DNA of 64,000 nucleotides from an uncultured Actinomycetes bacterium (GCA_963730285.1 CAVSQY010000010.1:2721-66720); one strand, 5' to 3'. Shown: positions 23,490-32,209, counted from the stretch's first letter. The notes: generated by a model not told the origin, from the sequence alone. A program made the numbers and translations.

Positions 23490-23990
23490 ATGAGAGTGTC
23501 CATGAGCGTCAATGGGAGCCAGGTGAGTGGCGATGTCGAGCCACGCGACCTCCTGGTCCACTTCATCAGGGAGAACCTTCACCTGACCGGTACCCATGTC
23601 GGCTGTGAGACCGGCTATTGCGGTGCATGCACCGTCCATCTGGACGGCAAGCCAATCAAGTCATGCACCATGTTCGCCGTTCAGGCGGATGGAGCGACCA
23701 TCACCACCATCGAGGGCCTGGCCGATGGCGACCAACTACATCCGGTTCAGGAGGGATTCTGGGAGCGTCACGGTCTCCAGTGTGGGTTCTGCACACCTGG
23801 GATGATCATGAGCGCGGCGGCCCTGCTGGAGGAGAACGACGATCCGTCCGAGGACGAGATCCGCCACGGTATCGAGGGCAATCTCTGCCGATGCACCGGC
23901 TACCACAACATCGTCAGGGCCGTGGAATACGCCGGCGCCCGTATTCGTGGCGAAGAGCCGCCGGCACCTGATTGGGAAGGAGGTCTCTGA
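23490..23990 (+). CDS. coxS: (2Fe-2S)-binding small subunit of a xanthine dehydrogenase/CoxS family enzyme
   Basis: [11 protein letters not shown] and [17 protein letters not shown] cysteine clusters are present. The SD AAAGGA precedes ATG 23490. Confidence 0.85.
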
Positions 23991-26365
23991 TGGCCACCAC
24001 TAGCGTCATGGGAGGATCGGTTAGGCGACGGGAAGATCCCGCGCTGATCAGAGGAACCGGCCTCTTCACCGACGACGTCCAGCCGACCGGTGTCCTCCAC
24101 GTCAAATTCGCCCGGTCGCCCGTCGCTCGGGCCAAGATCACCAGACTGGATACCTCGAAGGCAAAGGGCATGCCCGGTGTCGTTGCCGTATTCACCCACG
24201 AGGACGTGGCCGATCTCGGCCCGCTTGTGGCACAGGTCCCGATAGGCAAGCTCCGTCCGCTGCTCGCAGACGGCGAGGTGAACCACGCCGGCGAGGCCGT
24301 GGCCATGGTCATCGCAGCCAATCGGTCCCAAGCAGAAGATGCCGCCGAGGCCATCGAGGTCGACTACGACACCATGCCCGCGATCATCGATCTCAAGAAG
24401 GCCGCCTCCGACGAGATCAAGGTTCACGACGATCTCGACTCGAACGTGATCCTCACCTGGACATACCACGGTTACTGGCCGGCCCTCGGGCTCGAGGACC
24501 AGACACCACAAGTCGATGAGGCAATGGAACGTGACGATGCAGTGGTGGTCAGCCTGGAAATGACCAACCAACGTCTGATCCCGGTGGCAATCGAGCCCCG
24601 CTCGGTCGTGGCCGAGTACAACCCGGGATACGCGCGCTTCACGGTTCACAGCTCGACTCAGGTCCCGCATGCCCTATCCGGCGCGATCGCGACCCAGTTG
24701 GGCGTTTCGGCTAGCGACGTCAGGGTCATCGCCCCCGAGGTCGGGGGCGGGTTCGGAGCGAAGCTGAATGTCTACAACGACGAGATCCTGGTCGCGTGGG
24801 CATCCAAGCAGCTGGGTCATCCTGTCAAATGGACCGAGACCAGGCGTGAAGCAGCCGGGTCGACGATTCACGGGCGTGGCTGGGTCGGCACCGCCACCCT
24901 CGTCGGCACCAAGGATGGCCAGTTCCTGGGCTACAAATTGGACGCAATCGCCGACATGGGCGCCTACACCCAGAACTTCACGGTGGCCATCCCGCTGTTG
25001 GGGCTTTGGATCGCGTCCGGTCAATACAAGATGCCGATCGGCTGGAAAGTCGACTGCGTAGTAACCAACACGATGACCACCGACGCATATCGCGGGGCCG
25101 GCAGGCCAGAGGCGATCTACTACCTGGAACGAATTATCGACGCCTACGCCCATGAGATCGGCATGGACCCATTCGAGGTGCGCGCCAAGAACTTCTGGCA
25201 GCCCGATGAGTTCCCGGCCACGATGGGGTGTGGCTTCTCGCTCGACTCGGGCAACTACCAGGCTGCGGTCGACCGTCTCATCGAGGTCAGCGACTATCAC
25301 GACATGCGTCGTCGCCAGGAGGAGGCGCGGGCCGAAGGTCGCCTCGTCGGGATCGGTGTCGGATCATACGTCGAGGTGTGCGGGTTCGGGCCGGCGGTGC
25401 TTGCAGATATCGGGTTCTCCTGGGCTGCCTATGGGCTGCCCGCATCGTTCAATGGCTCCGGCCTGGTCCGCGTGAACCCGGACGGGACGGCGACGGTAAT
25501 CATCGGAACCGGCCCCACCGGCCAAGGTCACGAGACCACCTGGGCCCAGATCGTCAGCGACCAACTCGGGATCGAGGTGGACAACGTCAGGGTCTATCAC
25601 GGTGACACCCTTGATGCCCCGATGGGGATCGGCACTTTTGGGAGCCGTTCCCTATCAGTCGACGGCTCGGCCACATTCGGCGCCACACAGGAGATCAAAG
25701 AGAAAGCGGCCAAGATCGCCGCGCACCTTCTCGAGGCATCAGCGGAGGACATCGTCCTCGCCGATGGGGGCGCCCACGTTGCTGGATCACCCGACAAACG
25801 CGTGGAGTGGTCGGCGATAGCAAAGTCGGCCTATCAGGCCCATACCCTCCCCGAGGGCATGGAGTCGGGTCTTGAGGCCGAGTCGACCTTCAGCCCGGGC
25901 AATGCCACTTGGCCGTTCGGGACCCATCTCGCCATGGTCGAGGTCGATCCGGAGACCGGGTATGTGAAACTCCTCGAATATCACGCCGTCGATGACTGCG
26001 GCAACGTGATCAACCCAATGATCGTGGCGGGTCAGGTGCATGGTGGGATCACGCAAGGCATCGGCCAGGCAATGTTTGAGGATGCCATCTACGACGCCTC
26101 GGGCAACATGCTCGCCGGGTCCCTGCTCGATTATCCGCTGCCGACAGCGGCAGATCTCCCCTCCTATGACCTCCATCGAACGGTGACACCGACCGATGTG
26201 AACCCCATGGGTGTGAAGGGCATCGGGGAGGCGGGGACCATCGGGTCGGCGCACACCATCGTGAACGCCGTGGTCGACGCCCTGTCACCGATGGGTGTCA
26301 AACATATCGATATGCCGGTTAGGCCAAGACGTGTCTGGCAGGCGATGCAGGAAGCGAGGGTTTGA
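23990..26365 (+). CDS. coxL: Molybdopterin-binding large subunit, form II CoxL-like
   Basis: The active-site loop reads TDAYRGAGRPEA (the form II AYRGAGR signature, not the form I VAYRCSFR). The SD GGGAAGGAGG is present, and the ATG overlaps the coxS stop (TGATG). Confidence 0.85.
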   Translation: MATTSVMGGSVRRREDPALIRGTGLFTDDVQPTGVLHVKFARSPVARAKITRLDTSKAKGMPGVVAVFTHEDVADLGPLVAQVPIGKLRPLLADGEVNHAGEAVAMVIAANRSQAEDAAEAIEVDYDTMPAIIDLKKAASDEIKVHDDLDSNVILTWTYHGYWPALGLEDQTPQVDEAMERDDAVVVSLEMTNQRLIPVAIEPRSVVAEYNPGYARFTVHSSTQVPHALSGAIATQLGVSASDVRVIAPEVGGGFGAKLNVYNDEILVAWASKQLGHPVKWTETRREAAGSTIHGRGWVGTATLVGTKDGQFLGYKLDAIADMGAYTQNFTVAIPLLGLWIASGQYKMPIGWKVDCVVTNTMTTDAYRGAGRPEAIYYLERIIDAYAHEIGMDPFEVRAKNFWQPDEFPATMGCGFSLDSGNYQAAVDRLIEVSDYHDMRRRQEEARAEGRLVGIGVGSYVEVCGFGPAVLADIGFSWAAYGLPASFNGSGLVRVNPDGTATVIIGTGPTGQGHETTWAQIVSDQLGIEVDNVRVYHGDTLDAPMGIGTFGSRSLSVDGSATFGATQEIKEKAAKIAAHLLEASAEDIVLADGGAHVAGSPDKRVEWSAIAKSAYQAHTLPEGMESGLEAESTFSPGNATWPFGTHLAMVEVDPETGYVKLLEYHAVDDCGNVINPMIVAGQVHGGITQGIGQAMFEDAIYDASGNMLAGSLLDYPLPTAADLPSYDLHRTVTPTDVNPMGVKGIGEAGTIGSAHTIVNAVVDALSPMGVKHIDMPVRPRRVWQAMQEARV

Positions 26366-26366
26366 C

Positions 26367-27224
26367 GTGTACCCGAGACAATTCGACTATCTGGCGCCCT
26401 CGACACTGGAGGAGGCCCTGGCGGCGTTGGGTGACGGTTCCAAGGTGATGGCCGGAGGCATGAGTCTCATCCCACTCATGAAGATGCGCCTCTTCTCCCC
26501 ATCGGTGGTCGTGGATATCGGAAAGATCCCCGGGCTCGACATGGTCGAGGACAAAGGCGATCACATCGCCATCGGAGCCCTCGTCCGTCACGCCGTCACT
26601 GCATCCGATTCCACCATTGCGGCCAATGCGGCAGCACTGGCACAGGCGGCGTCTCTTACGGGAGATGTCCAGGTGCGAAATCGGGGCACGACGTGTGGAT
26701 CATTGGCCCACTCCGATGTTGCCGCCGATCAACCTGCTGCGGTGATCGCGCTGGGTGCCACCATGGTGGCTCGCTCCGCGGCGGCGACACGTGAGATCGC
26801 TGCTGCGGACTTCTGCGTCGACGCCCTCACCTCCGCCCTGACGCCAGACGAGATCCTGACCGAAATCCGCATCCCGAAGGCGGGCCCGGGAGAAGGGTCC
26901 GCCTATGACAAGCTCGGTCGCCGAGGGGGGCACAGTGACTATGCGGTCGCCGGCGCGGCTGCCTGGGTGAAAAAGAGCAACGGATCGATCGAGGACGCCA
27001 GGGTCGGCATAACCGGTGTCGGCACGAGGCCGAGCCTGTTGGCTTCCGTGGGCGAGGCGATCATCGGGACCGACGGGTCGGATCAGGCTATAGAGGCGGC
27101 CGCAGAGCACGCCCTCGACGATCTGACCCTCCTCGAGGACCTTTACGGGTCGGAGGAGTACAAAGGGCACCTGGCCAAGGTGTATGTCAGGCGGGCGCTG
27201 AGACAAGCCATCGCCGCGATCTAA
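26367..27224 (+). CDS. coxM: FAD-binding medium subunit (CoxM-like)
   Basis: FDYLAPSTLEEALAAL...MAGGMSLIPLMKMR is present. A GTG start lies 1 nt after the coxL stop. Confidence 0.8.
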   Translation: MYPRQFDYLAPSTLEEALAALGDGSKVMAGGMSLIPLMKMRLFSPSVVVDIGKIPGLDMVEDKGDHIAIGALVRHAVTASDSTIAANAAALAQAASLTGDVQVRNRGTTCGSLAHSDVAADQPAAVIALGATMVARSAAATREIAAADFCVDALTSALTPDEILTEIRIPKAGPGEGSAYDKLGRRGGHSDYAVAGAAAWVKKSNGSIEDARVGITGVGTRPSLLASVGEAIIGTDGSDQAIEAAAEHALDDLTLLEDLYGSEEYKGHLAKVYVRRALRQAIAAI

Positions 27225-27317
27225 TCTCATCCAGTAATCGGACCTCAATTCTCGGGAGGTTCGTTGACCACGCCCGGGATGTGCCTGGTCGAGCTGGAAA
27301 GAGAGTGGAAGAGGGCG

Positions 27318-27587
27318 ATGCCGGACATGAGTCAACTTTGCGAGCACTTCGAAGACTTGGTGGAAGTGGCGCCGACCTCGAGCGTTTGTGACCAATGCGT
27401 CGCCATCGGTGATCGGTGGGTGCACCTGCGAGCCTGCCTCCAATGCGGCCAGGTGGGCTGTTGTGACAATTCGAAGAATCGCCACGCTCGCAAGCATTGG
27501 CAGGGACAGGGTCATCCGTTGATCCGTTCCATGGAGCCGGGCGAGACTTGGCGATTCTGCTTCGCTGATGGTGTGGTGGCGCGATGA
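27318..27587 (+). CDS. UBP-type zinc-finger protein
   Basis: CDQCVAIGDRWVHLRACLQCGQVGCCDNSKNRHARKHWQGQGHPLIRSMEPGETWRFC is present. The SD GGAAGAGGG precedes ATG 27318. The stop overlaps the next start (ATGA). Confidence 0.75.
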   Translation: MPDMSQLCEHFEDLVEVAPTSSVCDQCVAIGDRWVHLRACLQCGQVGCCDNSKNRHARKHWQGQGHPLIRSMEPGETWRFCFADGVVAR

Positions 27588-29239
27588 GTGACGCCAAGCC
27601 GGTCATAATCGCAGTCGACGACGAGCCCGAGGTCGTCCAGGCCATCCAGCGCGACCTGCGATCCCGCTATGCCAAGGATTACAGGGTGGTGTGGGCCAAT
27701 GACGGCCGGGAGGCGATCGAGACGTTGAAGACCCTCGCCATGCAGAACGACCCGGTCGCACTGATCCTGGTCGATCAGAGGATGCCCGGTGTCACCGGGA
27801 TCGACGTGTTGAAGGAGACCTTGGACCTCCATCCGGATGCCAAACGAGCCCTGCTCACCGCATACGCCGACACCGATGCGGCGATCAGCGCGATCAACGA
27901 GGTCGACCTGGACCACTACATCATGAAGCCGTGGGACCCGCCGGAGGATCGGCTCTATCCAATCCTGGACGACCTGCTCGAGGACTGGGCCGCCGGGTAT
28001 AGGCCTTCCTACGAGGGGCTGCGGGTCGTTGCCCAGCAATGGTCTCGCGAGGCACATGCGTTGAAGGCCTTCCTCGCCCGCAACCAGATTCCCTATCTCT
28101 CGCTCGACATCGACAACGACCCAAAGGCGGCTGTCCTTGCCGACGAGGCGGGGGCCGGGCCCGATCAGATGCCGATGGTGCTATTCCCGGAGGGGCCACC
28201 TCTGCTGCACCCGACGGCCACCGAGGTAGCCGAACGTGTCGGTCTCCGTGTGCATGCAACGGCCGACATATATGACGTCGTGATCGTCGGCGGTGGCCCG
28301 GCCGGCCTGGCGGCGGCGGTCTATGGCTCTAGCGAGGGGCTCAAGACATTGCTCATCGAGGAAGAGGCACCGGGAGGGCAAGCCGGGCAGAGCTCCCTCA
28401 TCGAGAACTACCTGGGTTTCCCGCGCGGGTTGAGCGGAGCAGACCTGGCTCGGCGTGCCACCTCCCAGGCGAAGCGACTTGGTGCCGAGATCCTGGTGCC
28501 CGGCACCGTTGCCGGAGTCACCAGGAAAGACCCGTACAAGCTGCTCGAGATGGCAGATGGCTCGGAGATCAGCTGCAAGTCACTCATCGTGGCCAGTGGA
28601 GTCTCTTATCGCCGACTGAACGCGGACGGGCTCGACGATCTCCTTGGGACCGGTGTCTACTATGGAACTTCGACCATCGAGGCCTCGACACACCGGGACC
28701 AGTCGATGTTCGTGGTTGGGGGAGGCAACTCGGCGGGGCAGGCATCGTTGTTCCTCTCCCGTTTCACCGATGCGGTCACCATCCTCATCAGGGGCCATGA
28801 CCTCACCGACTCGATGTCGAAGTACCTCATCGACAACCTCGAAGCCAACCCTGCCGTATCGGTGCGCCCCCGTTCCCAGGTCGTGTCTGGATTCGGCCAC
28901 GAGCGACTCGAAGCGCTGGTGATCAAAGACCTCGAAACCGACGTGGAGGAGAAGGTCGAGGCGGGCGCGGTGTTCATCTTCATCGGCCAGAAGGCACACA
29001 CCGACTGGCTCGGCCAGCTGGTGGCGCTCGACGATCGCAACTTCATCCTGACCGGGGAGGACATCGGCCAGGTCAAAGGATGGAACGTGGAGCGAGACCC
29101 GCTTCCACTTGAGACGAGCGTGCCCGGGATCTTCGCCGCCGGCGACGTCCGACATGGATCGATCAAGAGAGTGGCAGGAGCCGTGGGAGAGGGAGCCACC
29201 GCCATCAGGTTCGTGCACCAACACCTCGCTTCTCTGTGA
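27584..29239 (+). CDS. Response-regulator receiver fused to a thioredoxin-reductase-like flavoprotein (CxxC lost)
   Basis: REC domain (IIAVDDE, LILVDQRMPGVTG, MKPW), a thioredoxin-fold-like middle region and FAD/NAD(P) folds (VVIVGGGPAGLAAA, VVGGGNSAGQ, AAGDVR). The TrxB CATCDG position reads GTSTIE, and the whole protein has only one Cys. Confidence 0.85.
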   Translation: MSDAKPVIIAVDDEPEVVQAIQRDLRSRYAKDYRVVWANDGREAIETLKTLAMQNDPVALILVDQRMPGVTGIDVLKETLDLHPDAKRALLTAYADTDAAISAINEVDLDHYIMKPWDPPEDRLYPILDDLLEDWAAGYRPSYEGLRVVAQQWSREAHALKAFLARNQIPYLSLDIDNDPKAAVLADEAGAGPDQMPMVLFPEGPPLLHPTATEVAERVGLRVHATADIYDVVIVGGGPAGLAAAVYGSSEGLKTLLIEEEAPGGQAGQSSLIENYLGFPRGLSGADLARRATSQAKRLGAEILVPGTVAGVTRKDPYKLLEMADGSEISCKSLIVASGVSYRRLNADGLDDLLGTGVYYGTSTIEASTHRDQSMFVVGGGNSAGQASLFLSRFTDAVTILIRGHDLTDSMSKYLIDNLEANPAVSVRPRSQVVSGFGHERLEALVIKDLETDVEEKVEAGAVFIFIGQKAHTDWLGQLVALDDRNFILTGEDIGQVKGWNVERDPLPLETSVPGIFAAGDVRHGSIKRVAGAVGEGATAIRFVHQHLASL

Positions 29240-30582
29240 GCGCCATCTCGGAGGTGCTGAGGAGCCTCCCCTACTTCGCCGACCTCCCGGATTCCCTGCT
29301 GGACCAGGTATGTGAGCAATCCGAGGAGCTGAGTCTTCCACCGGGCAAGGTCATCATCCAAGAAGGATCCCACTCAGAGGACATGTTCGTGGTGGTCGAG
29401 GGAGAGCTTCGAGTGACCAAGGCGGGCTCCGATCGCGAGGTCGTGTTGGCCACACTCGGCCCTGGCGAGGTGGTTGGGGAGATTGCACTGCTCGATCGCG
29501 CACCACGAACCGCGAGCGTTACCACCGCGTCGCCGGCGAAGCTGATTCGGATCCCGGCAGGGGCATTCGAGACCTTGCTGGAGGACTCCCGGGTGGTCAG
29601 ACGCATGTTTGGCACCGTCACTTCACGACTTCGTGGCATCGAGGAGACACTTCGCCATGAGGAGCGAATGGCCGCCCTGGGCCGGATGGCCGCCCAGTTG
29701 ATGCACGAGCTCAACAATCCGGCGGCGGCGCTCAGCCGGACCATGGCAAGGACCCGAGAGGTCTACGAGGCGTTGGGCGAAGCGGCCTTCCGGTTGGCAG
29801 CCAGTGGTGAGGCCGGCGCCCTCGACGTGCCTTCGGCAAACCCACAACAGCTCGGCCCTCTCCAACGATCGGAGCAAGAGGACCAAGTCGGCACCTGGCT
29901 CGAGGATCTCGGCGTCGAGGATTGGTTCGAGTTGGCCTCGGCGCTCGTAGCCGACGGTTTCGAAGTCACCCAGCTGGAGGCAGCGGTCAAGGACCTGAAA
30001 CCTGACACAAGACGAGACTTCGCTCGCTGGCTGGGTTTGCGTTGTCTGGCGGCTCAGCTCCTCGACGAGGCGCGAATTGCCGTGGGGAGGATCTCCGAGC
30101 TGGTCCGAGTGGTCAAGAACTACTCGTTCCTCGACCAGGCGCCAATACAAGAGATCGACCCAACCGAAGGGATCAACGACACCCTCGTCCTGCTCAAGCA
30201 CAAGTTGCGCGGGATAGATGTCGTCCTCGACTTCGAGCCCGACCTGCCTCGGATCGAAGCTTCAGGCCGCGACCTGAATCAGGTGTGGACAAACCTCTTC
30301 GACAACGCAGGCGATGCCATGGACGGAAACGGAACGCTCACGATCTCTGCGGCCGCCGAAGAGGACAAAGTGGTCATCGAGGTCTCCGATACCGGGCCCG
30401 GCATGGACGAGACCACCCGACAAAAGGCATTCGACCCCTTCTTCACCACCAAGGAACCAGGCAAGGGCACCGGGCTCGGCCTCCACACTGTGCACACGAT
30501 CGTCAATCGCGCCGGTGGCACGATCGACATCGACTCCGATCCCTCGGGCACCACCTTCACCCTGGTCTTCCCCCGCTCCTGA
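29236..30582 (+). CDS. Cyclic-nucleotide-binding-domain histidine kinase
   Basis: N-terminal cNMP-binding fold (GEVVGEIALLDRAPRTASV), H-box LMHELNNPAAA and ATPase motifs NLFDNAGDAM, DTGPGM and GKGTGLGL. The GTG start overlaps the upstream stop (GTGA). Confidence 0.85.
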   Translation: MSAISEVLRSLPYFADLPDSLLDQVCEQSEELSLPPGKVIIQEGSHSEDMFVVVEGELRVTKAGSDREVVLATLGPGEVVGEIALLDRAPRTASVTTASPAKLIRIPAGAFETLLEDSRVVRRMFGTVTSRLRGIEETLRHEERMAALGRMAAQLMHELNNPAAALSRTMARTREVYEALGEAAFRLAASGEAGALDVPSANPQQLGPLQRSEQEDQVGTWLEDLGVEDWFELASALVADGFEVTQLEAAVKDLKPDTRRDFARWLGLRCLAAQLLDEARIAVGRISELVRVVKNYSFLDQAPIQEIDPTEGINDTLVLLKHKLRGIDVVLDFEPDLPRIEASGRDLNQVWTNLFDNAGDAMDGNGTLTISAAAEEDKVVIEVSDTGPGMDETTRQKAFDPFFTTKEPGKGTGLGLHTVHTIVNRAGGTIDIDSDPSGTTFTLVFPRS

Positions 30583-30647
30583 CGGTTAACCGTGAGGGGG
30601 GAATTCGGAAATTCCGTTTCCCTGACGGGGCGAAAAGGAGAACCGGG

Positions 30648-31502
30648 TTAGGGGCGGCGGAAGGCGGTCCCAGCTCGGGCCACGAGCACGTCAGATGGCG
30701 CTTCGGTGACCAGACCTTCCGCCACGGTTCCGAGGAGAACCATTCGGGTCGAAGTCGCGCCCCGACTCGAAACTGTTACCAGGTCGGCGCCACGTCTCCG
30801 AACCGCCTCTTCGATCGTCTTGGCGGGCGGCCCATCCACCACCAGTGTCCCAACCTTGCCTGCCCAATGTTGGGCAAACTCCTCCATTCGCTCCACCGCT
30901 TTTGCCAGTCGCACCTCGCGTGATGCCTCGATCTCTTCCTCGAACAGGCCTGCGTCGGCCAGTATCGGGTCGAATCGGGATGGCAATGAGTAGAGCGCCG
31001 TGACCTCGGCGTCGGGGAAGAGCTCGAGCGACCGATCGACGGCAACTCTCGACTGCTCGGAGAAGTCAGTGGCGGCGACGATGCGCCGGTACGGGACCCG
31101 TGGTTGCCGCCTCACGACCAGGGTGTCGGTGGTGGCCTTGCGCGCCACTCGTTTTGCGACAGGGCCGACCGAAAAGGCATCGATGGATGATGAGCCGACC
31201 ACCACCAGGTCGGCCTTCTTGCCACGTGCCGCCAGCTCCCACGATGGAGAGCCTTTGACCACGTCGAGCACCACCTCGATGTTCGTCCGCTCCTGCACCC
31301 ATGCAGCCAGCTTCTCGGCCTGCTCACTCTGGTGCTGTCGAAGAAGCCTGGCCAGTGGCGGCTCGATCATCGCCTCAGCGACCGGCTCGAGCACATGGAT
31401 CAAATTGAGCGTGGCGCCAGACGACTCCGCCATGATCCGGGCTCGGTCTGCGACCCGCCGACCCATGGCAGTTAGATCGACTCCGGCAACGACGACCTGC
31501 AA
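30648..31502 (-). CDS. Tandem universal stress protein (UspA family)
   Basis: Two Usp repeats are present. The C-terminal nucleotide-binding-like segment reads LVTVSSRGATSTRMVLLGTVAEGL. Confidence 0.8.
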   Translation of the reverse strand: MQVVVAGVDLTAMGRRVADRARIMAESSGATLNLIHVLEPVAEAMIEPPLARLLRQHQSEQAEKLAAWVQERTNIEVVLDVVKGSPSWELAARGKKADLVVVGSSSIDAFSVGPVAKRVARKATTDTLVVRRQPRVPYRRIVAATDFSEQSRVAVDRSLELFPDAEVTALYSLPSRFDPILADAGLFEEEIEASREVRLAKAVERMEEFAQHWAGKVGTLVVDGPPAKTIEEAVRRRGADLVTVSSRGATSTRMVLLGTVAEGLVTEAPSDVLVARAGTAFRRP

Positions 31503-31531: not shown

Positions 31532-32209
31532 CTACAAGCTGGGCTCGGGTGCCGCGTCGCGAAAGGGATCGGGGCCTTCGAGGGCCATTTCCAGACGTTC
31601 CATATAGGCGTCACGGCCGACCACCACCGCACCGAGGGACTCGAGGTGTGGCGTTTGCCACTGGACGTCGATCATCCTCCCGCCGCCCTCACTGAGCACC
31701 ACGACCAGATGCACCAGCGCCACTTTGGATGCATCCCGGGAGAGATGGAACATCGACTCGCCGGCAAACAACCCGCCGATCGACACCCCATAGAGCCCAC
31801 CTGCCAGTTCCCCCTCGTCATCCCATACCTCGAATGAGTGTGCCCATCCCAGACGGTGGAGCTTCAGGTAAGCCTCGATGAATTCGTCGGTGATCCAGCC
31901 TTCCTCGCGGCTTGGATCGGCACAGGCCCTGATCACACCCTCGAAGTCGGAGTCGATGGAAACCTGGTAGCGCCGTGTCGATTGCCGGAGTGACCTGGTT
32001 ATGCGGAGCCGACTCATAGGGAGAATCGCCCGGTCCACCGGCGACCACCATCCGAGGTGTCCGTCGGGCAACTCCATGGGGAAGAGACCCTTCCTGTACG
32101 CCTGCAGCAAGGTGCCTGGCTCGAGGTCAGCACCCACGGCCACGACGTCACCGTCCCCAGGCTGTGGATCCGGCAGCGTCCATGCAGAGGGCTCGGGCTC
32201 AATGCTCAC
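31532..32209 (-). CDS. aat: Leucyl/phenylalanyl-tRNA--protein transferase
   Basis: LLQAYRKGLFPM, GWWSP, WITDEFIEAYLKLHRLGWAHSFEVW and GGLFAGESMFH are present. Confidence 0.85.
   Translation of the reverse strand: MSIEPEPSAWTLPDPQPGDGDVVAVGADLEPGTLLQAYRKGLFPMELPDGHLGWWSPVDRAILPMSRLRITRSLRQSTRRYQVSIDSDFEGVIRACADPSREEGWITDEFIEAYLKLHRLGWAHSFEVWDDEGELAGGLYGVSIGGLFAGESMFHLSRDASKVALVHLVVVLSEGGGRMIDVQWQTPHLESLGAVVVGRDAYMERLEMALEGPDPFRDAAPEPSL

Follow-up and report, generated by a model that had tools for sequence, protein, structure and literature searches.

A cysteine-less thioredoxin reductase-like flavoprotein as the probable output of a two-component system, encoded beside a ZnF-UBP mini-protein

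What could a response regulator do when its output module resembles thioredoxin reductase (TrxR) but has lost the redox cysteines of that enzyme? The question is raised by a 64,000-nucleotide stretch of DNA from an uncultured Actinomycetes bacterium (GCA_963730285.1 CAVSQY010000010.1:2721-66720), the whole of which is called the window below. Three genes at positions 27318-30582 encode a small zinc-finger protein of the zf-UBP family, a regulator in which a receiver domain (REC) precedes a TrxR-like flavoprotein, and a histidine kinase with a domain that binds cyclic nucleotide monophosphates (cNMP). An earlier note, made by a model from the sequence, had proposed that these genes form a coupled trio with a flavoenzyme or flavin sensor as its output. 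Our analysis leads us to favor, with some reservation, a cytoplasmic two-component system in which the kinase controls a cysteine-less flavoenzyme and the zinc-finger protein acts as its partner. The features on which the argument draws are as follows.

27318..27587, plus strand: gene of the zf-UBP mini-protein, 89 amino acids, with a match to PF02148
27584..29239, plus strand: response regulator gene, 551 amino acids, encoding REC, a Cys-less glutaredoxin-like fold and a Cys-less TrxR-like flavoprotein
27605..27943, plus strand: receiver domain, residues 8-120 (Pfam Response_reg, E 5e-16)
27773-27775, plus strand: codon of the phospho-acceptor Asp64 of the receiver
28019..28237, plus strand: glutaredoxin/mycoredoxin-like fold, residues 146-218 (TIGR02200 below cut-off; predicted secondary structure)
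28268..29236, plus strand: TrxR-like two-dinucleotide-fold flavoprotein, residues 229-551 (Pyr_redox_2, E 2e-36)
28658..28684, plus strand: Y359-Y360-G361-T-S-T-I-E366-A367, in place of the TrxR CATCDG redox centre (alignment to 4gcm and 7jyp)
29236..30582, plus strand: soluble histidine kinase gene, 448 amino acids, GTG start
29329..29586, plus strand: cNMP-binding domain, kinase residues 32-117 (PF00027, E 2e-22)
29704..29706, plus strand: codon of His157, the predicted autophosphorylation site, in the H-box LMHELNNPAAAL
30268..30576, plus strand: HATPase_c catalytic domain, kinase residues 345-447 (PF02518, E 8e-24)

The first step is to establish what the flavoprotein is not. The 551-residue regulator contains a single Cys (C331), as the earlier note had counted, and a HMMER alignment to solved TrxRs bears out its placing of the residues GTSTIE at the site of the CATCDG redox centre. 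In this alignment, which includes a one-residue insertion, G361 and I365 face the two redox cysteines and E366 faces the catalytic acid-base Asp. When 1.84 billion representatives were searched exhaustively, 3205 proteins came back at E <= 1e-30; two comparison sets were used, an alignment of 105 near-full-length representatives and a set of 81 orthologs that are about 50% identical. In every member of both sets the CATC site has the sequence V[YF]YGAxx[ST]EA, and a Cys stands at either CATC column in 0 of the 105 representatives and 0 of the 81 orthologs. Both sets were also examined for a redox disulfide at some other place in the chain, an observation that, according to the earlier note, would speak against its proposal, and neither a conserved Cys column nor a Cys pair was found; the best Cys columns, position 370 (54 of 81 orthologs, where the window regulator has His) and position 331 (46 of 81), are not conserved. 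Judged from these alignments, the cysteine loss is family-wide and defines the family. Because the redox cysteines are absent, dithiol-disulfide exchange is excluded for the module, and the name "thioredoxin reductase (NADPH)", under which the family is routinely annotated, is wrong. The score of the regulator against TIGR01292, the thioredoxin-disulfide reductase model (219.9 bits, under the 343.45 cut-off), likewise agrees with the earlier view that this is not a canonical thioredoxin reductase.

By its sequence, the module nevertheless still looks like a working two-nucleotide flavoprotein. The positions that are at least 97% conserved across the 81 orthologs number 105, and they include G236, G238, P239 and G241 of the FAD motif GGGPAG (236-241) together with G264-G265-Q266 and G520-D521, G379 and N382-Q386 of the NAD(P)H motif GGGNSAG (379-385) together with R403, and Y359, Y360, G361 and E366 at the site of the lost redox centre. 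An insertion of about 15 residues relative to TrxR carries the invariant W500, R504 and P506. The AlphaFold2 model of the regulator (pLDDT 91.5, pTM 0.85) superposes best on Lactococcus lactis TrxR in its flavin-reducing (FR) conformation (TM 0.95, rmsd 1.7 Å), whereas flavin-oxidising TrxR structures lie at an rmsd of about 7 Å from it. The module is thus like TrxB (TIGR01292) in its two-dinucleotide fold, in the glycine motifs for FAD and NAD(P)H, GGGPAG and GGGNSAG, which are invariant in the family, and in the superposition of its predicted structure. It differs from TrxB in that both redox cysteines and two of the three Arg of the 2'-phosphate site are gone, in the W500/R504/P506 insertion, in the receiver and glutaredoxin-like fold that the regulator adds at its N terminus, and in a score below the family cut-off. 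AhpF is alike in joining, within a single chain, an N-terminal thioredoxin-fold region to a TrxR-like flavoprotein, and Foldseek aligned it to the model over 512-558 columns; the AhpF model TIGR03140 scores 147.9 bits against a cut-off of 502.9. AhpF, however, has a CxxC in both of these parts and reduces AhpC, while the regulator is without both centres, and the first N-terminal unit of the regulator is a receiver rather than a second thioredoxin fold.

The active-site residues of that receiver, D12, D13, D64, T92 and K115, are all present in the window regulator and are each at least 97% conserved among the 81 orthologs. The segment between it and the flavoprotein, described in the earlier note as thioredoxin-fold-like, is harder to place. 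AlphaFold2 predicts residues 146-218 as a beta-alpha-beta-alpha-beta-alpha unit with a pLDDT of about 90, and the mycoredoxin model TIGR02200 matches residues 148-219 at E 1.7e-7, but this match is under the cut-off and that of Pfam Glutaredoxin is not significant (E 0.27). The thioredoxin-fold call is reasonable, and it is the weakest of the domain assignments. The CxxC position of the putative fold reads W153-S154-R-E-A157 in the window regulator and W-S-x-x-[AS] among the orthologs, with Ser154 in 76 of 81, and its cis-Pro-like P197 is at least 97% conserved in the same set.

The three open reading frames lie at the positions given in the earlier note and are joined by the overlaps that it described, an ATGA at the zf-UBP/regulator junction GCGCGATGAGTGAC, where the stop overlies the next start, and a GTGA at the regulator/kinase junction TCTCTGTGAGCGCC. 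For the zinc-finger gene, the start that yields 89 amino acids is preferred to a TTG at 27264 because the purine-rich GGAAGAGGG lies just 5' of the ATG at 27318 and homologs of the mini-protein are 86-88 amino acids long. Pfam agrees with each of the domains named at the outset: zf-UBP at E 5e-13 and 49.5 bits (cut-off 22.7), Response_reg at 59.3 bits (cut-off 30.2), Pyr_redox_2 over regulator residues 230-537, and cNMP_binding in the kinase at 79.2 bits (cut-off 27.5). None of the three window proteins has a hydrophobic segment, and a promoter and terminator scan of 26900-31000 gave nothing above shuffled expectation.

Does the kinase next door belong to this regulator? A one-genome-per-species scan with a 36-sequence alignment gave at least 580 confirmed stretches, not deduplicated by species, and the counts out of 80 receiver-type loci refer to the best 80 of these, which are full-length and 47-55% identical. 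They come from about eight phyla (Cyanobacteria, Chloroflexota, Acidobacteriota, Gemmatimonadota, Bacteroidota, Burkholderiales, Actinomycetota and Planctomycetota). In 73 of the 80 loci the regulator has an ortholog of the window kinase core (E 1e-28 to 1e-79) as its neighbor, downstream in 47 cases and upstream in the other 26; the two genes share a strand in 71. Among 72 adjacent kinases, Pfam detects cNMP_binding in 63 and PAS in 3. The residues H157, E158, N161 and P162 of the motif H157-E-L-N-N-P are invariant across 73 aligned kinases, and on kinase segment 120-345 Pfam gives a weak HisKA match at the His157 site (E 0.083). The neighborhood comparison for which the earlier note had called thus shows a pair that recurs across phyla, which is strong comparative evidence that kinase and regulator are cognate partners between which phosphate would be transferred. 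The trio as a functional unit holds up well in the lineage of the window, where it is intact in 10 of 10 Acidimicrobiia loci; beyond it, the kinase and regulator stay together but the zinc finger is found in only 17 of the 80 cross-phylum loci. A further conserved feature of the kinases is an insertion of ~120 residues that lies between H-box and ATPase domain (residues about 170-300, window 29743-30135; consensus SD.ED....WL...G....W.LA..L...G); Pfam, run on residues 120-345, found no domain in it.

In CRP and PKA-type domains, a Glu and an Arg of the phosphate-binding cassette hold the cyclic phosphate. The cassette of the window kinase, GEIALLDRAPRTAS, follows the canonical pattern G-E-x-A-L...P-R-[ST]-A and has both residues, so that cAMP or cGMP, the input presumed in the earlier note, is plausible for this kinase. 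Among the orthologous kinases compared (loci L003-L082), a canonical cassette is found in a minority (L004, L021, L033, L037 and L047, and L034 in part), whereas most have the non-canonical form G.LP[FY]SRM, with FFGEIPVLT..P.PVT in the cyanobacterial ones. A possible source of a cNMP signal is encoded on one Acidimicrobiia contig, where a gene on the strand opposite the trio, 3.3 kb upstream of it, specifies a large nucleotide cyclase of class III with Guanylate_cyc, AAA_16 and TPR domains (L089:1-2654).

The flavoprotein module is also found in other company. In about 20 representative clusters an N-terminal cNMP-like domain replaces the receiver while the cysteine-less motifs remain the same, and single proteins combine the module with C-terminal EF-hands (P0219) or with an N-terminal SnoaL domain (P0132). 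Because sensor domains are swapped around a constant catalytic module, the pattern is the one to be expected of a signaling output enzyme, in line with the earlier proposal that the output is an enzyme-like flavoprotein and not a DNA-binding domain. One further protein, P0125, has a degenerate receiver and a C-terminal canonical cNMP domain with a cassette nearly identical to that of the window kinase. It was considered as a single-chain REC-flavoprotein-cNMP 'Rosetta stone' and was not relied on, since it could be a read-through or truncated regulator-plus-kinase open reading frame. Genes for a Zn-ribbon thioredoxin, for Hsp20, for Dps and for SDR are repeatedly found around the cNMP-fused paralogs (loci L091-L170), each of them in 5-7 loci (for example L133:2368-2946, L133:5849-6403 and L141:142-744), a context that points to stress or dormancy.

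The third member of the trio follows the module through several of these arrangements. The closest solved structure to the zf-UBP mini-protein is bacterial 2IDA (E 9e-24 over 83 residues). Among 19 orthologs C8, H10, C24, C27, W34, H36, L37, R38, C40, C43, C48, C49, D50, S52, H56, H60, H66, C81 and D84 are invariant, and the Cys, His and Asp ligands of the three zinc sites are all among the residues kept. The orthologs found in the 17 receiver-type loci have E values of 1e-22 to 1e-33 and are all on the same strand, in varying places before the regulator, between regulator and kinase or after the kinase. In all 10 of the Acidimicrobiia loci, the zf-UBP gene abuts the start of the regulator, and in one Gemmatimonadaceae locus it lies between regulator and kinase on the opposite strand. 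Of 80 metagenomic loci that encode cNMP-fused paralogs, 21 also have it within 700 bp of the flavoprotein gene, as do 14 of the 54 that have flank on both sides; in these 80 loci neither REC nor kinase is present. The economical reading of this distribution is that the zinc finger may be a direct partner or substrate of the flavoprotein module itself. Public gene tables do not always reveal it: zf-UBP DNA is present but uncalled at L088:5744-6001, L089:5741-6001 and L090:4751-4993, and several JGI records call such mini-proteins 'CPA2 family monovalent cation:H+ antiporter-2', a name apparently carried over from the annotation of a fusion protein.

The sequence of events that we favor would then run as follows. 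First, the soluble kinase would sense a ligand through its N-terminal cNMP-binding domain, here probably cAMP or cGMP, and ligand binding would control its autophosphorylation on His157, from which the phosphate would pass to Asp64 of the regulator. Second, the effector would be an FAD/NAD(P)H flavoprotein from the TrxR/AhpF lineage that sits behind a glutaredoxin-like fold, the redox cysteines having been lost in both. Acting as a homodimer, it would most likely pass electrons from NAD(P)H to FAD and on to an acceptor other than a disulfide, be it a small molecule, O2 or a partner protein. Third, phosphorylation of the receiver could gate the flavoenzyme, plausibly by shifting the rotation of the NAD(P)H domain that is typical of TrxR, with the receiver and glutaredoxin-like domains biasing this rotation as a switch. 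Because the invariant YYG...E occupies the place of the disulfide loop, rotation of the NAD(P)H domain could, by analogy with TrxR, shield the flavin with this segment in one state and uncover it in the other. Finally, the zf-UBP mini-protein would be the dedicated partner of the flavoprotein, as substrate, electron acceptor or adaptor. Among candidate acceptors, we would rank first the zinc-finger protein and small sulfur compounds, oxidised ergothioneine for example, second O2 or quinones, and third ferredoxin or flavodoxin.

Several points weigh against this scheme. Gating is proposed from structural knowledge of TrxR and from one predicted conformation. Of the TrxR 2'-phosphate site HRRxxxR, one of the three Arg is kept (R403), and because it alone is left the choice between NADH and NADPH is uncertain. 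Many distant members of the family have kept the flavoprotein while the phospho-acceptor Asp is gone from their receiver-like fold, so that control by phosphorylation is not universal. Nor is the signal generally a cyclic nucleotide, since the cassette Arg is missing from most orthologous kinases and from all cNMP-fused paralogs examined; the input suggested at the outset may hold for the window kinase but does not extend to the family. Outside Acidimicrobiia, only about a quarter of the loci have a zf-UBP gene, and the flavoprotein is therefore not strictly dependent on it. In addition, a full-text literature search returned census mentions only and no functional study or biochemical data for any member.

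The alternative that survives best, although we consider it unlikely, is that the module is a sensor rather than an enzyme. The redox state of its FAD and NAD(P)H would tune receiver phosphorylation or a protein-protein interaction, and the regulator would merge the redox state of the cell with the signal from the kinase and relay the result, perhaps via the zinc-finger protein. Such a role would suit an operon in which there is no obvious substrate gene and in which the zinc finger could act as the downstream effector. It would also suit the many distant members that retain the flavoprotein behind degenerate receivers, and the stress and redox genes nearby, which are Usp and CoxSLM in the window and Hsp20, Dps and thioredoxin near the cNMP-fused paralogs. 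It is less easily reconciled with the place of the module, C-terminal to REC, cNMP or EF-hand sensor domains and so in the usual position of an effector, or with dinucleotide sites and about 100 other positions that are almost invariant, as they would be in a catalyst.

A bolder and rather improbable reading would take the module and the zf-UBP protein together as an unrecognised signal-gated flavin redox device in which dithiol chemistry has given way to a flavin that acts directly on a sulfur or metal centre. Such a device might reduce the sulfenic acid or the disulfide of ergothioneine, or exert redox or zinc control over the Cys-rich finger, and the inputs would differ by lineage, being a phosphorelay, a cNMP-like ligand, or Ca2+ via EF-hands.

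It is improbable, too, that the flavoprotein is a TrxR-like ferredoxin/flavodoxin-NADP+ reductase (FNR) of the YumC or Chlorobaculum type that has come under two-component control. The CxxC is absent from that group as it is from the module, solved FNRs match the module at E 3e-16 to 1e-11, and the conformation of the model would allow hydride transfer from NAD(P)H to FAD. Set beside both groups, as the earlier note had advised, the module is nonetheless much closer to genuine TrxRs (E 1e-41, 146 bits, about 30% identity over 320 residues) than to FNRs (about 62 bits). In TrxR-like FNRs, an extension at the C terminus packs against the flavin, whereas the predicted chain of the regulator stops at residue 551 with the last TrxR helix. 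A ferredoxin or flavodoxin gene was also not among the conserved neighbors of the loci examined.

About as doubtful is a role for the flavoprotein and zinc finger in ergothioneine chemistry that the two-component system would switch on under stress. One option would be that the flavin directly reduces an ergothioneine sulfenic acid or disulfide, and NADH peroxidase is a precedent for direct reduction of a sulfenic acid by flavin. The genes egtB and egtD are contiguous and co-oriented with the cluster in seven loci, in four gene orders and two phyla (L032, L038, L044 and L064 in Acidobacteriota; L020, L046 and L055 in Bacteroidota; for example L046:3151-5359 and L055:6439-8627). All seven carry zf-UBP and so make up 7 of the 17 zf-containing receiver-type loci, and the gene calls are confirmed by NCBIfam (TIGR03440, 519-541 bits, cut-off 360; TIGR03438, 297 bits, cut-off 290.9). 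Against this, no egt genes lie within the 64-kb window, they are missing from most loci, none was found next to the cNMP-fused paralogs, and the chemistry is speculative. In a further locus, L050, an EgtB-like gene directly follows the regulator.

The mini-protein shares its fold family and three zinc sites with USP5, HDAC6 and 2IDA. It departs from eukaryotic ZnF-UBP domains in being a stand-alone protein of 86-89 amino acids encoded beside a flavoprotein, in an extra invariant Cys (CC) and in an invariant H-L-R insertion. In USP5 and HDAC6, respectively, R221 and R1155 are the Arg that hydrogen-bonds ubiquitin Gly75 or contacts the ubiquitin C-terminus (PMC3988567). The corresponding residue of the mini-protein is N51, within the invariant CCD-x-S, and orthologs have D, N, S or A in its place. 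A zf-UBP gene accompanies the flavoprotein in Bacteroidota, Acidobacteriota and Cyanobacteria, three phyla from which pupylation is, to our knowledge, not known. The idea that the zinc finger links the system to protein tagging by recognizing a free C-terminus of the Gly-Gly or Pup-like kind, floated in the earlier note as speculation, has in its favor the Pfam zf-UBP membership and the alignment of W34 and W78 with aromatic pocket residues of HDAC6, but is unsupported and very improbable given the replaced Arg and the presence of the gene in those phyla, and no Pup/ubiquitin-like gene is among the recurrent neighbors.

The neighbors of the trio in the window, to which the earlier note had drawn attention as redox- or stress-related, are the following.

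about 23490..23990: CoxS
23972..26365: CoxL-like, with the AYRGAGR form-II motif
26295..27224: CoxM-like
30648..31502, minus strand: tandem Usp
31532-32209, minus strand: Leu/Phe-tRNA protein transferase (N-degron pathway)

The form II CoxSLM genes upstream and the tandem Usp downstream are present as described, and the Usp and Leu/Phe-tRNA protein transferase genes are convergent with the kinase gene, but the linkage is not general. A CoxSLM-like cluster lies upstream of the trio in the window and four other Acidimicrobiia loci (L001, L084, L088 and L090) and downstream in L086, L087 and L089, which hints at a lineage-specific functional link of this molybdenum hydroxylase cluster with the trio within Acidimicrobiia. 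The Usp and Leu/Phe-transferase genes are syntenic, in the gene order of the window, in L001, L084, L085, L088 and L090, and are missing from the rearranged loci L086, L087 and L089. Across the 80 cross-phylum loci, linkage to CoxSLM, Usp or Leu/Phe-transferase is absent save for one weak CoxM match, and it was set aside as a general feature.

Parts of this system have been catalogued before. Regulators that join REC to a thioredoxin reductase (pyridine nucleotide-disulfide oxidoreductase) domain are in one census (PMC5847659), and a cyanobacterial census lists a response regulator class 'TrxB' in a strain that also has its one cNMP-binding kinase (PMC9953108). From the census passages available to us, these 'TrxB'-type regulators of Galperin and co-workers have the same REC and Pyr_redox_2 architecture as the window regulator, and those passages are silent on the missing redox cysteines, the glutaredoxin-like linker, the cNMP-kinase partner and the zf-UBP partner (PMC5847659, PMC9953108). 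Families that combine a cyclic-nucleotide-binding (CNB) domain with HisK or with Pyr_redox were listed by Kannan et al. 2007 (PMC2246266). The 'HisK' family has an N-terminal cNMP-binding domain and a HisK-type ATPase, and its cassette consensus GELSLLTGGPRSATVRA resembles the window sequence GEIALLDRAPRTASVTT (PMC2246266). Most of the regulator-paired kinases differ from it in their non-canonical cassette, and they carry the ~120-residue insertion that has no Pfam match. Our full-text search found no mention of the missing cysteines, the conserved pairing with a cNMP kinase or the zinc-finger partner. The window locus is thus a typical member of a widespread, catalogued and uncharacterised system, and what is new here is the recognition of its 'thioredoxin reductase' as a cysteine-less variant with a dedicated ZnF-UBP partner.

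In summary, enzymatic outputs of two-component systems are understood mostly for nucleotide second-messenger enzymes and methylesterases, and a flavoenzyme controlled by phosphorylation, if the reading favored here is true, would be an output of another kind. It belongs to a large family, with at least 580 stretches in a one-genome-per-species collection. The recurrent pairing of this flavoprotein with a bacterial ZnF-UBP protein, for which a solved structure exists, together with some linkage to egt genes, opens an experimental entry to two orphan protein families.

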